Assembly: GCF_056746865.1 (NCBI RefSeq)
Contig: NZ_CM163382.1
DNA: 64,000 nt
Strand: one strand, 5' to 3'
A program made the position numbers and the translations under genes. Position 1 is the first letter of the stretch. Every line of letters starts with the position of its first letter. Below, one piece after another: positions 19,655 to 51,603 of this stretch. The notes under the pieces are model-generated. The model did not search any database. It was not told where the DNA came from and saw only the letters and a list, made by a program, of their open reading frames with translations.

Positions 19655-19696
19655 AGGTTGTTCTCCCGGCTTATGAGCTTGTTTGCTTGCCGGATG

Positions 19697-19732
19697 CGGC
19701 GTGAGCGCCTTATCCGGCCTACGGGGCGGTGC
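19697..19732. repeat. REP element (gccggatgcggcgtgagcgccttatccggcctac)
   Basis: REP consensus-like palindrome in the wzc-wcaA gap. Confidence 0.5.
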
Positions 19733-19746
19733 GAATGCAGGTGTCG

Positions 19747-22360: not shown

Positions 22361-23500
22361 TTACCAGTTATGAATGTCGCTGGCTGTATCCGTCATGTAA
22401 CGGACACCGCTAATAGTTGGCAGCAACTGATTGATCAGACGGTTCCAGCGGGAAACCGGGGCGGTGGTGACATACACCACGTCATAAGGTTGCAGGCGGA
22501 ATTCTGTCGCCATCACCAGCGACGTCGCATCGGACATATCCAGCTGGTAGATATTGGCAATCTTGCCGTTACGCCCGCCCTCGCCTTTCAACGGACGAAT
22601 GACAAAGATGCCGCTGGCGTTGGAGGTGGTCATGTCGATGCCTTCGGCATTGCCCAGAGCTTCAGTCAGGGTCATGCCGCTAAAGTCCATTTTCAGGGTG
22701 CTCTGTTTCTTCACTTCACCCATCACAAATACTTTCAGATCATCATTACGCGGCACGTAGAGAATATCGCCGGGATAAAGCAGTCGGTTCTGATTGAGGT
22801 CGCCGTTTTGCATCAGCGCCTGCAAAGAAATGCGTTCTTCACGACCATTGTGTGTTAGCACCACGTTGCGCCAGTCAGCGGTGTCGGTCAGACCACCTGC
22901 GGCGTTGATGGCGTCGAGAATGGTCAGTGGTACGTTGGTGATCGCCTGTTGACCGGATTTATTCACCTGACCTGAGATATAGGCCTTTTGCGAGCGGAAG
23001 GCGGCGATATTAACGTCCACCTGCGGGTCAGCGATGTACGTCGCTAAGCGCCCGGTAATATCACTGCGGATTTCAGCGAGCGTTTTCCCGACTACGTGGA
23101 CCTTGCCGATATACGGGTAAAACATAGTGCCGTCAGGCTGTACCCAGTTGCCGGTGTCGCTGGAGCTGCGGTACTGACCGGCTGGCGTGGTGAGTTCCGG
23201 GTGATCCCAGACGGTGACATTAAGAACGTCCCCCGGCCCGACGCGATACTGGTAATTCGCGATCTCACTTTCCAGCGTCATATTGGGGCGCGCTACATTC
23301 GGGCGTGGGCGTAATTGGTCAATCAGGCGCGGGGTCAGCGGATAAACATTCACCATTTTGTCGAGATCGAAATCAGCGTCCTGCTGTTTGATGACGTCTT
23401 TGCCCATCGTCGACATATTGCTGCCCGGAAGTACTGTGCAACCGCTTATCAAGGTTACTGACACCAATAATGGCATCAATTTCATTTTGGATTTCATCAT
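22361..23500 (-). CDS. wza: outer-membrane polysaccharide export lipoprotein Wza (379 aa)
   Basis: ORF track 379 aa; lipoprotein signal ending LISGC; first gene of the cluster. Confidence 0.92.
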
Positions 23501-23678
23501 TGTTTATTTATCACTTTGGCAGAGTAATTATCCTGTGCACTATTAATAGCAATGTCGCCATGCACATTTACCTTGCAGTTAATTGAATAAAAATTTAACT
23601 GGCATCAGTCCTAAAAAAATTGATTTCATCCGCAGGCTATTGACAGAATAATTCAGACTGGTCTTTCAGGCATCCAGA

Positions 23679-23690
23679 CACGCTACCGCC
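23679..23690 (-). promoter_or_regulatory. ops element (GGCGGTAGCGTG on the transcribed strand) within a JUMPstart-type leader of the wza operon; RfaH recruitment site
   Basis: Plus strand reads cacgctaccgcc; reverse complement is the 12-nt ops consensus GGCGGTAGnnTG; ~180 nt upstream of the wza start codon. Confidence 0.6.
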
Positions 23691-23903
23691 CCTGGCTTTT
23701 TAGCTACCAATACACTGATTTAGTTTAATTTTTCACACCCTCTCAGCATGCAGTCGTTGATGAGAAAGGGTTATTACGGAAATTAACTTCCGAATATAAG
23801 GTGACATTATGGTAATTGAATATTGGCTTTCCAATAATGCAGGAGGAAGTGTTACAGCTAACGGAATAGCAGGCAAGGTAACAATTCGGCAATTGGCTAT
23901 TTT

Positions 23904-23917
23904 TAAGAATTATATTA
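23904..23917 (-). promoter_or_regulatory. candidate RcsAB-box-like sequence (taagaattatatta) in the wza upstream region
   Basis: Partial match by eye to the RcsAB box consensus TaAGaatatTCctA; the AT-rich context makes chance matches likely. Confidence 0.25.
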
Positions 23918-24158
23918 AGTGTCATTCAATATGGTTTTTAGGAGTTTCTTTAGGTTGACAATATTTAATATTGCGCCTCCACATGCGATATTTCTTAAAT
24001 AATGTTTTATTATTACCACTTTTAATTCAGGGATAATGTGAGGTTATTACCCTCAAATAATATGAGATAAATAGTGCTGCAACATTGCATTTTTGCCCCG
24101 ATTTATCCATGATCGAATTGTGACATTTGTCATACAACGAATAGGTTTTGTACTTACT

Positions 24159-25742
24159 ATGGAATGGATTGCCGATCCGTCTATCTGGGCCGGGTTAATC
24201 ACGCTGATTGTGATCGAACTGGTCCTCGGCATTGATAACCTGGTCTTTATTGCCATCCTCGCCGAAAAACTACCGCCGAAGCAGCGCGACCGCGCACGGG
24301 TTACCGGGCTGCTGCTGGCGATGTTAATGCGCCTGTTACTGCTGGCGTCAATCTCCTGGCTGGTCACCCTGACTCAACCGCTGTTCAGCTTCCGCTCGTT
24401 TACCTTTAGCGCCCGCGACTTAATCATGCTGTTTGGTGGTTTCTTCCTGTTGTTCAAAGCCACGATGGAGCTGAACGAACGGCTGGAAGGGAAAGACAGC
24501 AATAATCCCACACAACGCAAAGGTGCGAAGTTCTGGGGCGTGGTGACGCAAATTGTGGTACTGGACGCCATTTTCTCACTCGACTCAGTGATTACCGCCG
24601 TCGGGATGGTCGACCATTTACTGGTCATGATGGCCGCCGTGGTTATCGCTATCAGCCTGATGTTGATGGCCAGCAAGCCGTTAACGCAATTTGTTAACAG
24701 TCACCCGACCATCGTTATTCTCTGCTTAAGCTTCCTGTTGATGATTGGCTTTAGCCTGGTGGCAGAAGGTTTCGGCTTCGTCATTCCGAAAGGCTACCTG
24801 TACGCTGCCATTGGTTTCTCGGTGATGATCGAGGCGCTCAATCAGTTGGCTATCTTTAACCGGCGACGTTTTCTTTCCGCTAACCAGACGCTGCGCCAGC
24901 GGACTACCGAAGCGGTAATGCGCCTGCTTAGCGGGCAAAAAGAAGATGCGGAACTGGACGCCGAAACCGCGTCCATGCTGGTGGATCATGGTAACCAGCA
25001 GATCTTTAATCCGCAGGAACGGCGGATGATTGAGCGGGTACTAAATCTTAACCAGCGTACCGTCAGCAGCATTATGACGTCGCGCCACGATATTGAGCAT
25101 ATCGATCTCAACGCGCCGGAAGACGAGATCCGCCAGTTGCTGGAGCGAAATCAGCATACGCGGCTGGTGGTTACCGACGGTGATGACGCAGAAGATTTGC
25201 TCGGTGTTGTTCACGTTATCGACCTGCTACAACAGTCTCTGCGCGGCGAACCGCTCAACCTGCGGGTGTTGATTCGCCAGCCGCTGGTGTTCCCGGAAAC
25301 CTTGCCGTTGTTACCTGCCCTGGAGCAGTTCCGTAATGCCCGCACGCACTTTGCTTTTGTGGTGGATGAGTTTGGCTCGGTGGAAGGGATTGTGACATTA
25401 AGTGACGTCACTGAAACCATTGCCGGTAACTTACCGAACGAAGTGGAAGAGATCGACGCCCGCCATGATATTCAGAAGAATGCGGACGGTTCCTGGACGG
25501 CGAATGGTCATATGCCGCTGGAGGATCTGGTGCAATATGTGCCGCTGCCGCTGGATGAAAAACGTGAATATCACACCATTGCCGGGCTGTTGATGGAGTA
25601 TTTGCAGCGTATTCCAAAACCTGGCGAAGAAGTTCAGGTGGGGGATTATTTGCTTAAAACGTTGCAGGTAGAAAGCCATCGCGTGCAGAAGGTGCAGATT
25701 ATTCCGCTGCGTAAGGATGGCGAGATGGAGTACGAGGTGTGA
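24159..25742 (+). CDS. yegH: inner membrane protein YegH (TerC-family integral membrane domain + CBS pair + CorC/HlyC C-terminal domain, 527 aa)
   Basis: ORF track frame 24093..25742; start placed at ATG 24159 giving [18 protein letters not shown]...; divergent from wza. Confidence 0.9.
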
Positions 25743-48787: not shown

Positions 48788-50203
48788 ATGACAGATCTTC
48801 CCGACAACACCCGCTGGCAATTGTGGATTGTGGCTTTCGGCTTCTTTATGCAGTCGCTGGACACCACCATCGTCAACACCGCGCTTCCCTCAATGGCGCA
48901 AAGCCTCGGGGAAAGTCCGTTGCATATGCACATGGTCATTGTCTCTTATGTGCTGACCGTGGCGGTGATGTTGCCTGCCAGCGGCTGGCTGGCGGACAAA
49001 GTCGGCGTGCGCAATATTTTCTTTACCGCCATCGTGCTGTTTACTCTCGGTTCACTATTTTGCGCACTTTCCGGCACGCTGAACGAACTGTTGCTGGCAC
49101 GCGCGTTACAGGGCGTTGGCGGTGCGATGATGGTGCCGGTCGGCAGGTTGACGGTGATGAAAATCGTACCGCGCGAGCAATATATGGCGGCGATGACCTT
49201 TGTCACGTTACCCGGTCAGGTCGGTCCGCTGCTCGGTCCGGCGCTCGGCGGCCTGCTGGTGGAGTACGCGTCGTGGCACTGGATCTTTTTGATCAACATT
49301 CCGGTGGGAATTATCGGCGCGATCGCCACACTAATGTTAATGCCGAACTACACCATGCAGACGCGGCGCTTCGATCTCTCCGGCTTTTTATTGCTGGCGA
49401 TTGGCATGGCGGTATTAACCCTGGCGCTGGATGGCAGTAAAGGTACAGGTTTATCGCCGCTGGCGATTACTGGCCTGGTCGCTGTTGGCGTGGTAGCACT
49501 GGTGCTTTATCTGCTGCACGCCAGAAATAACAACCGCGCTCTTTTCAGTCTGAAACTGTTCCGCACTCGTACCTTTTCGCTGGGCCTGGCGGGGAGTTTT
49601 GCCGGACGTATCGGTAGCGGCATGTTGCCCTTTATGACACCGGTTTTCCTGCAAATTGGCCTTGGCTTCTCACCGTTTCATGCCGGACTGATGATGATCC
49701 CGATGGTGCTCGGCAGCATGGGGATGAAGCGAATTGTGGTACAGGTAGTGAATCGCTTTGGTTATCGTCGGGTACTGGTGGCAACCACGCTGGGTCTGTC
49801 GCTGGTCACCCTGTTGTTTATGACTACCGCTCTGCTGGGCTGGTACTACGTTTTGCCGTTCGTCCTGTTTTTACAAGGGATGGTCAACTCGACGCGTTTC
49901 TCCTCCATGAACACCCTGACGCTGAAAGATCTCCCGGACAATCTGGCGAGCAGCGGCAATAGTCTGCTGTCGATGATTATGCAATTGTCGATGAGTATCG
50001 GCGTCACCATCGCCGGGCTGTTGCTGGGACTTTTTGGTTCGCAGCATGTCAGCGTCGACAGCGGCACCACACAAACCGTCTTTATGTACACCTGGCTTAG
50101 CATGGCGTTTATCATCGCCCTTCCGGCGTTCATCTTTGCCAGAGTGCCGAACGATACGCATCAAAATGTAGCTATTTCGCGGCGAAAAAGGAGCGCGCAA
50201 TGA
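48788..50203 (+). CDS. mdtD: MFS transporter MdtD (471 aa)
   Basis: ORF track 471 aa; polytopic; ATG immediately after the mdtC stop. Confidence 0.9.
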
Positions 50204-51603
50204 AGTTCTGGCGACCCGGTATTACCGGCAAACTGTTTCTGGCGATTTTCGCCACCTGCATTGTCTTGCTGATCAGTATGCACTGGGCGGTGCGTATCAG
50301 TTTTGAGCGTGGCTTTATTGATTACATCAAGCATGGTAATGAACAGCGATTACAACTGTTAAGTGATGCGCTTGGCGAGCAGTATGCGCAGCATGGCAAC
50401 TGGCGCTTCCTGCGCAACAATGATCGCTTTGTCTTTCAGATCTTGCGTTCATTTGAACACGATAATTCGGAAGATAAACCCGGCCCGGGTATGCCGCCGC
50501 ACGGCTGGCGTACCCAGTTCTGGGTGGTCGATCAAAACAACAAAGTGCTGGTTGGTCCGCGAGCGCCGATTCCACCTGACGGTACACGGCGACCCATTCT
50601 GGTCAACGGTGCGGAAGTGGGTGCGGTGATTGCCTCCCCTGTTGAGCGACTGACCCGCAATACTGATATCAATTTCGATAAACAACAGCGGCAAACCAGC
50701 TGGCTGATTGTTGCTCTGGCAACGTTACTCGCGGCACTCGCTACCTTTCTGCTGGCGCGTGGTTTGCTGGCACCGGTAAAACGGCTGGTGGACGGCACGC
50801 ACAAACTGGCGGCGGGCGATTTCACTACCCGCGTAACGCCCACCAGTGAAGATGAACTGGGCAAACTGGCGCAAGACTTCAACCAGCTTGCCAGCACGCT
50901 GGAGAAAAACCAGCAAATGCGGCGCGATTTTATGGCCGATATTTCTCACGAACTGCGTACGCCATTAGCGGTGCTGCGCGGTGAACTGGAAGCCATTCAG
51001 GATGGCGTGCGTAAATTCACGCCGGAGACGGTGGCGTCTTTACAGGCGGAGGTCGGTACACTGACCAAACTGGTTGACGATCTCCATCAGTTGTCGATGT
51101 CTGATGAAGGCGCTCTCGCCTATCAAAAAGCACCGGTAGATTTGATCCCACTGCTGGAAGTGGCGGGCGGCGCATTTCGCGAACGATTCGCCAGCCGTGG
51201 CCTGAAACTGCAATTTTCCCTGCCAGACAGTATTACCGTATTTGGCGATCGCGACCGTTTAATGCAGTTATTCAATAACTTACTGGAAAACAGCCTGCGC
51301 TACACTGACAGCGGCGGTAGCCTGAAAATCTCTGCCGGGCAGCACGACAAAACGGTGCGACTGACCTTTGCCGACAGCGCGCCGGGCGTCAGTGACGATC
51401 AGCTACAAAAATTGTTTGAACGTTTTTATCGCACCGAAGGTTCCCGCAACCGAGCCAGCGGCGGTTCCGGGCTGGGGCTGGCGATTTGCCTGAACATTGT
51501 TGAAGCACATAATGGTCGCATTATTGCTGCCCATTCGCCTTTTGGCGGGGTAAGCATTACAGTAGAGTTACCGCTGGAACGGGATTTACAGAGAGAAGTA
51601 TGA
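50200..51603 (+). CDS. baeS: envelope-stress sensor histidine kinase BaeS (467 aa)
   Basis: ORF track 467 aa; H-box [11 protein letters not shown]; 4-nt overlap with mdtD. Confidence 0.92.

Follow-up and report, generated by a model that had tools for sequence, protein, structure and literature searches.

The wza-yegH intergenic region of Escherichia coli: a JUMPstart/ops leader, conserved upstream motifs and a candidate divergent yegH promoter

Results

What lies between wza and yegH in Escherichia coli? In the window, by which we mean the whole 64,000-nucleotide stretch of E. coli DNA analysed here, the two genes stand back to back on either side of a 658-bp gap (23501-24158) with a G+C content of 35% (0.35) versus 52% (0.52) for the whole window. 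The gap has exactly the length that an earlier note on this DNA gave it, the wza open reading frame occupying 22361-23500 on the minus strand and the yegH ATG lying at 24159 on the plus strand (Table 1). Wza matches the NCBIfam polysaccharide export protein PRK15078 with 729 bits, and its gene opens a series of 20 consecutive minus-strand open reading frames downstream of ops that runs from 23500 down to 874 and matches the wza-to-wcaM operon, in agreement with the 20-gene operon that the same note had counted. A REP-like hairpin (19655-19746) lies inside the wzc-wcaA gap. In the RefSeq annotation, the intergenic region is flanked by wza, wzb and wzc on one side and by yegH on the other. A stretch of 858 bases around it is 100% identical to strain CFSAN061761 (E. 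coli); of the 5426 complete E. coli genomes searched, 4838 contain this stretch, nearly always at 95% identity or more. MG1655 coordinates are obtained by adding 2,113,743 to the window coordinates.

Conservation was measured in a sample of 80 wza loci from Enterobacteriaceae genomes, in 76 of which yegH is divergent from wza. Seventy-seven gaps were aligned, and mean identity is expressed relative to the window (Table 1).

Table 1. Features of the wza-yegH region in window coordinates, with mean identity to the window across the 77 aligned gaps
Feature	Position	Strand	Mean identity	Description
wza	22361..23500	-		First of 20 same-strand colanic acid operon genes; from the open reading frame list and the RefSeq annotation of the identical region
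Block at the wza start codon	23501..23540	-	0.90	GTGCACAGGATAATTACTCTGCCAAAGTGATAAATAAACA; contains ACAGGAUAA
Leader block	23583..23574	-		Conserved
Leader block	23619..23592	-	0.88	TTTTTTTAGGACTGATGCCAGTTAAATT; downstream of ops
Leader block	23653..23625	-	0.81	AATTATTCTGTCAATAGCCTGCGGATGAA; downstream of ops
ops element	23679..23690	- (wza-sense, non-template)		GGCGGTAGCGTG; exact match; RfaH recruitment and pause site
JUMPstart	23679..23717	-	0.86	39 nt; 5-bp stem-loop, then ops; Rfam RF01707
Unconserved stretch	23815-23725		0.30	
Escherichia-only promoter-like site	23806..23834	-		TTGGAA-17-CATAAT; predicted +1 near 23799
Conserved sigma-70-like wza promoter (candidate)	23848..23876	-	0.83	TTGCCT-17-AACACT; predicted +1 near 23841
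Motif C	23900..23919	-	0.87	CTTAATATAATTCTTAAAAA; contains the box of the earlier note (23904-23917); centre near -69.5
Motif B	23935..23961	-	0.81	TTGTCAACCTAAAGAAACTCCTAAAAA; right half TCCTA in 73/77 gaps
Motif A	23984..23997	-		TAAGAAATATCGCA, TAAGAATATCGCA-type; centre near -149.5; best RcsAB-box candidate
yegH promoter candidate	24085..24113	+		TTGCAT-17-CATGAT; predicted +1 near 24120
Palindrome	24119..24134	.		TGTGACATTTGTCATA; conserved, at the predicted yegH +1; TGTGACAATTGTCATA in other genera
yegH	24159..25742	+		Divergent gene; by NCBIfam, TerC/YkoY-type membrane domain and CorC-type C-terminal part
Discrete conserved blocks			0.74-0.90	
wza third codon positions			0.54	

The ops element that the earlier note reported at 23679-23690 is an exact match, GGCGGTAGCGTG, on the wza-sense strand, where it satisfies the 12-nt ops consensus GGCGGTAGnnTG in the RNA sense. 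The distance to the wza ATG is 179 nt from its 3' end and 190 nt from its 5' end, as expected from the spacing of about 180 nt given previously. The element completes a JUMPstart: Rfam model RF01707 matches positions 23717..23679 of the minus strand over its full length (model positions 1-38 of 38) with E = 3e-12 and 57.3 bits, where the gathering score is 35, and besides a chance-level match to IsrR the Rfam scan of the gap returned no other RNA family. The position of the element is kept across genera. Of 76 orthologous gaps, about 70 retain ops, and its first base lies 188-199 nt ahead of the wza AUG there (190 in the window); JUMPstart is found at the same place in 19 of the 20 orthologous loci tested, with 43-58 bits. 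In the Pseudescherichia vulneris group, JUMPstart and ops are gone through a deletion of about 100 nt, while the promoter and the distal leader blocks are kept. The pattern GGCGGTAGNNTG has two copies in the 64-kb window versus 0.13 expected, and none of 100 shuffles gave two; the second copy lies within baeS.

Occupancy of this site by RfaH has been described. Among the eight leader ops sites of CFT073 for which Hustmyer et al. (2022) report an RfaH ChIP signal is GGCGGTAGCGTG, at -190 from wza, a target in delta-hns delta-stpA cells; the signal is gone in delta-rfaH (PMC9765446). The RfaH ChIP that the earlier note had suggested as a check is in effect already published, with a positive result. 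In CFT073, RfaH signal at the wza ops appears only when both hns and stpA are deleted, and in that background a sigma-70 ChIP peak is found upstream of wza; in the wild type, H-NS lies over the wza promoter region and the RNA polymerase signal is at background (PMC9765446). For the colanic acid operon, the JUMPstart-RfaH mechanism has been described together with activation by RcsA/RcsB (PMC9976346, PMC2478693), and genes beyond wzc need RfaH (PMC3673037). The RfaH dependence proposed in the earlier note agrees with a canonical ops/JUMPstart that is on the right strand, downstream of every plausible promoter and at a position kept across genera.

Where would transcription of wza begin? The conserved candidate comprises a -35 hexamer TTGCCT (23876..23871), a TGn element (23856..23854) and a -10 hexamer AACACT (23853..23848) that reads AACAAT in most genera, and its PWM score is at least 5 in 99% of the 77 gaps (median 8.1). 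From its predicted +1 near 23841, the leader would measure about 341 nt with ops at about +152. The second candidate, TTGGAA-17-CATAAT, lies 42 bp downstream; it is the sole match of a consensus scan in the gap, and with a PWM score of 8.1 it outscores every other sigma-70 site of the E. coli sequence. It is possible, if doubtful, that E. coli wza starts here (+1 near 23799) and that the TTGCCT/AACACT block is an upstream regulatory site. The box of the earlier note would then lie near -112, which fits the cps RcsAB box, presumably located about 100 bp upstream of the start. The wza start site was reportedly mapped by Stout in 1996, and this better-scoring E. coli site could be the promoter to which that mapping refers. 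However, the TTGGAA and CATAAT hexamers are missing outside Escherichia (only 5% of orthologues score at least 5) though regulation is common to the genera, and it is the upstream block that has promoter geometry in 99% of gaps. Both predicted +1 sites lie upstream of 23717, hence upstream of JUMPstart, so that either candidate puts ops within the predicted transcript and not ahead of its start, the arrangement that the earlier note had named as speaking against its reading.

According to PMC9764084, RegulonDB lists a further promoter, of the sigma-E type, and Rhodius et al. call the sigma-E predictions for colanic acid unvalidated; by inspection, we found no convincing match to the sigma-E promoter GGAACTT-16-TCTGA. 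We also note that at least one published "wza promoter" reporter begins, according to its primers, inside JUMPstart and thus leaves out the upstream promoter region mapped here.

The earlier note supposed that the long leader could hold further features, and four conserved blocks are indeed found between ops and the wza AUG, though these carry no RNA-structure signal. The conserved leader structure recovered by RNAalifold was limited to the JUMPstart stem and a hairpin close to ops, with no compensatory changes, and the folding z-scores of the leader are about 0 in E. coli and in 73 orthologues; for want of covariation and with such z-scores, a conserved leader RNA structure was rejected. An 8-codon upstream ORF at AUG 23603 was likewise rejected: its start is AUA in 4 of 39 sequences, its Shine-Dalgarno spacing is 3 nt or less, and its third codon positions are invariant. 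The block at the wza start codon would be the translation initiation region. The start region has no strong Shine-Dalgarno sequence, and weak Shine-Dalgarno sequences are common in RfaH-dependent operons.

Blocks 23653..23625 and 23619..23592 are kept in an orthologue that has no ops (L040), and the retention of the distal blocks in the P. vulneris group, which lacks JUMPstart/ops, indicates that their role is something other than RfaH recruitment. They might be sites for a post-transcriptional regulator, either CsrA on GGA motifs or an sRNA, and we regard this as rather improbable. An identity of 0.81-0.90 across genera with no structure signal, together with persistence in P. vulneris after JUMPstart loss, is what such sites might show. 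Two CsrA-like GGA motifs are present, UAGGAC (23612..23607) and ACAGGAUAA (23536..23528), and ACAGGAU, which matches the core of the CsrA SELEX motif, speaks for CsrA. The terms wza and UTR both occur in a study of CsrA from EPEC (PMC6333774). Against this reading, the GGA is replaced in some relatives, with CAGAAU in Salmonella arizonae and diarizonae and ACGUGAU in the Citrobacter freundii group; moreover, these two candidate CsrA sites stand about 78 nt apart.

Upstream of the conserved promoter, motifs A, B and C keep the lengths of their spacers while the spacer sequence drifts. Each contains one good RcsB-type half-site, the best half-site of motif A being inverted relative to those of motifs B and C. 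Wehland and Bernhard reportedly described in 2000 an RcsAB box, TaAGaatatTCctA, at the wza, rcsA, galF, tviA and amsG promoters, the wza box having been footprinted. We treated its capital-letter positions (T1, A3, G4, T10, C11 and A14) as invariant by assumption, and used the consensus skeleton T.AG.....TC..A. Motif A is the only sequence in 23300-24300 that fits this skeleton; it has five mismatches to TaAGaatatTCctA, none of which falls on a capital letter. At least 53 of the 77 gaps preserve the skeleton while the lower-case positions vary (for example, TAGGAAATATCGCA and TCGGATATTTCGCA), and in the most divergent genera motif A reads as the near-consensus TGAGGATATTCCTA. Similarly, motif A resembles the rcsA-promoter box TAAGGTTTATCCGA listed for Salmonella (PMC7913699). 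Motif B contains the 14-mer TAAAGAAACTCCTA at 23952..23939, centred near -104.5, which becomes TGAGGCTAATCCTA in divergent genera. RcsB has been proposed to bind the right half of the box, tatTCctA (PMC3950696), and RcsAB boxes are described about 170 bp upstream and in pairs, with two boxes at rcsA (PMC11879457). Motif A appears to be the canonical RcsAB box, with motifs B and C behind it, an assignment that we favor with modest confidence.

The earlier note had placed an RcsAB-box-like sequence, TAAGAATTATATTA, at 23904-23917, within motif C. The site is real and strongly conserved and includes an RcsB-type half-site, yet as an RcsAB box it falls short. It has four mismatches to TaAGaatatTCctA (10 of 14 positions matching) and, whichever way it is read, fails one capital-letter position: in TAAGAATTATATTA, position 11 is A in place of C11, and in the reverse strand TAATATAATTCTTA, the wza sense, position 4 is T in place of G4. 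Its match to the consensus is also at chance level. Three sites with at most four mismatches occur in the gap versus 1.4 expected from dinucleotide shuffles; since 20% of shuffles contain at least three, a box match alone is not above chance, and by this shuffle test none of motifs A, B and C matches the RcsAB consensus better than chance in the AT-rich gap. It is conservation across genera, not the consensus match, that marks motif C as a putatively functional site.

Could motif C (23904-23917) itself nevertheless be the functional and published RcsAB box, acting some 70 bp ahead of the conserved promoter as a class-I-type activator site? Of the three motifs it shows the highest conservation, with TC[CT]TA as its right half in 77 of 77 gaps, and the lowest mean number of mismatches to the consensus across genera (3.8). 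The right half, AATTCTTA, is of the RcsB type and fits the RcsB half wwTTCykA (PMC3950696), and the spacing from motif C to the -35 hexamer is constant despite the unconserved sequence between them. However, in addition to the capital-letter position missed in each orientation and the chance-level match, the left half lacks AG, and the skeleton T.[AG]G.....TC..A is found at this site in 0 of 77 orthologues. We therefore consider it unlikely that motif C is the published box, and retain motif A as the preferred candidate. No paper containing the exact candidate box sequences turned up in a literature search. Motif C was also considered as a PmrA/BasR direct repeat (CTTAAT...CTTAAA) and set aside on inspection, the repeat period being 12, not 11.

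That the conservation of this stretch reflects a real gene, the 49-codon ORF 23809-23958 on the plus strand, is scarcely credible, for although PGAP annotates it as "hypothetical protein" in many RefSeq E. coli genomes, it has no family match, an ORF of at least 40 codons spans the site in only 16 of 77 gaps and is absent from a representative E. coli genome (L003), K-12 has no annotation of it, and the conservation takes the form of discrete blocks at constant spacing, not of a codon pattern; the PGAP "hypothetical protein" over the promoter is probably spurious.

Finally, the divergent yegH promoter, for which the earlier note gave no coordinates, can be placed at the conserved TTGCAT-17-CATGAT, whose PWM score is at least 5 in 94% of the 77 gaps. 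By inspection, the palindrome TGTGACATTTGTCATA agrees with the CRP core TGTGA-N6-TCACA at 9 of 10 positions. The DNA of motif B reads TTGACA on the plus strand (23955-23960), but a second promoter in the yegH direction is not supported there, since E. coli has no usable -10 hexamer 16-18 nt downstream.

Discussion

Very probably, this is where the colanic acid (wza-wcaM) operon of E. coli has its canonical control region, which it shares with the divergent yegH. We propose that initiation would occur at the weak, highly conserved extended -10 promoter TTGCCT-17-AACACT (23876..23848, +1 near 23841). This promoter would be served by phase-kept motifs near -150 (A), -105 (B) and -70 (C), among which motif A (23997..23984) would be the best RcsAB-box fit and motif C is the site of the earlier note. 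The leader of about 340 nt would carry ops at about +152. The ops element acts on the non-template strand of the paused elongation complex and recruits RfaH there; RfaH renders RNA polymerase resistant to pausing, to Rho and to H-NS filaments, and this resistance would allow all 20 genes (about 23 kb) to be transcribed. The unstructured leader blocks and the weak Shine-Dalgarno start region may impose further control after initiation. In the other direction, yegH would be transcribed divergently from TTGCAT-17-CATGAT (24085-24113).

How does this region compare with other JUMPstart/ops leaders (rfaQ/waaQ, rfb/wzx, kps, hly, tra; RF01707)? The element itself shows no difference. The wza ops 12-mer is the same 12-mer found at rfaQ, wzx and tssH in CFT073, and, as in the other leaders, it belongs to the leader of a long surface-polysaccharide operon, occupies the non-template strand and is positive by RfaH ChIP. 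What sets the wza promoter apart from rfa, rfb and kps is its silence in rich medium and its requirement for either Rcs activation or the loss of H-NS. For the group 1 cps cluster of E. coli K30, Rahn and Whitfield are said to have described in 2003 a JUMPstart/ops leader before wza-wzb-wzc and a stem-loop after wzc. The upstream junction of the K30 cluster is another one, and its dependence on Rcs is not known to match that of the colanic acid operon. The colanic acid locus resembles it in having a JUMPstart/ops leader before wza-wzb-wzc, in the REP-like hairpin 19655-19746, which stands here for the stem-loop after wzc, and in the requirement for RfaH beyond wzc (PMC3673037).

Likewise, the region resembles RcsAB-box promoters in that its far-upstream part is AT-rich and H-NS-bound, in its 14-mers with an RcsB-type half-site, and in a motif, A, that fits the invariant skeleton and is similar to the rcsA box. 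It differs from them in that three motifs are conserved rather than one and in that motif C misses a capital-letter position. In AT-rich DNA such as this, a match to the RcsAB consensus is by itself no guide to the operator.

Three phase-kept motifs with RcsB-type half-sites, one of them inverted, suggest a multi-site activator or anti-H-NS complex and not a single box, and leader blocks that survive the loss of JUMPstart/ops suggest a separate, post-initiation control of wza. That the region thus harbors undescribed conserved inputs, namely a multi-motif activator/anti-H-NS complex and a separate post-initiation control of wza through CsrA, an sRNA or translation initiation, is a speculative reading that we would advance only tentatively.

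The finding is real and is already known biology, and the earlier note was right to call it established. For the colanic acid operon, descriptions of JUMPstart/ops, of dependence on RfaH, of activation by RcsAB and of silencing by H-NS go back to 1994-2000, and ChIP-seq published in 2022 showed RfaH at exactly this ops site (PMC9765446). The practical value of the analysis is a coordinate map for annotation that covers the promoter candidates, the three upstream motifs, JUMPstart and the leader blocks, and the additional conserved motifs and leader blocks add details of modest interest to a system already known.

Putative coding and promoter features of the wza-yegH gap

What is encoded across the conserved wza promoter? 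The 49-codon open reading frame that PGAP calls a hypothetical protein in many E. coli genomes (WP_162829205.1) directly overlaps the conserved wza promoter motifs on the opposite strand, and it has no family match. As an open reading frame it is not kept: one spans this site in 16 of the 77 aligned gaps and is missing from another E. coli. WP_162829205.1 is probably a spurious gene call.

The forward primer of a published "wza promoter" lacZ fusion, AAAAGCCAGGGGCGGTAGCG, begins within JUMPstart (PMC11112850); therefore, the cloned fragment contains only the distal leader, without the upstream promoter region mapped here.

Read in the yegH direction, the invariant TTGTCAA of motif B (a conserved block upstream of wza) gives a perfect −35 hexamer, TTGACA; no usable −10 was found 16–18 nt downstream of it in E. 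coli. A conserved palindrome, TGTGACATTTGTCATA, coincides with the predicted yegH +1. In other genera it is replaced by TGTGACAATTGTCATA, with a perfectly palindromic core, TGACAATTGTCA. The conserved palindrome agrees with the CRP core at 9 of 10 positions.

Coordinates of the features discussed
Feature	Position	Strand
REP-like hairpin, wzc-wcaA intergenic gap	19655-19746	-
Published lacZ fusion fragment	23500-23698	
49-codon ORF (WP_162829205.1)	23809-23958	+
TTGACA hexamer	23955-23960	+
Palindrome at yegH +1	24119-24134	
baeS	50200-51603	
Second ops-type 12-mer	51313-51324	+

RfaH-related elements and leader variants

Two further elements lie outside the gap. The REP-like hairpin GCCGGAUAAGGCGCUCACGCCGCAUCCGGC between wzc and wcaA has a folding z-score of −2.85, and it is plausible that it forms an internal barrier to be read through by RfaH-modified polymerase. 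A second ops-type 12-mer, GGCGGTAGCCTG, falls on the coding strand of baeS; it is probably inert, by analogy, because RfaH ChIP signal is absent at intragenic ops sites in CFT073 (PMC9765446).

The leader itself varies among relatives. In the Citrobacter amalonaticus locus the ops-to-wza AUG distance is 308 nt versus the usual ~190, and an insertion of ~118 nt lies between the two. Upstream of wza in Pseudescherichia vulneris, "Escherichia sp. ESNIH1", and UBA7338 (L036, L037, and L040), JUMPstart and ops are absent because of a ~100-nt deletion: there is no Rfam match, and the closest ops match has four mismatches. The arrangement of wza and yegH is unchanged in these three loci, which also retain both the conserved promoter and the distal blocks of the leader. 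Their loss of JUMPstart and ops provides a natural test of the operon's need for RfaH.
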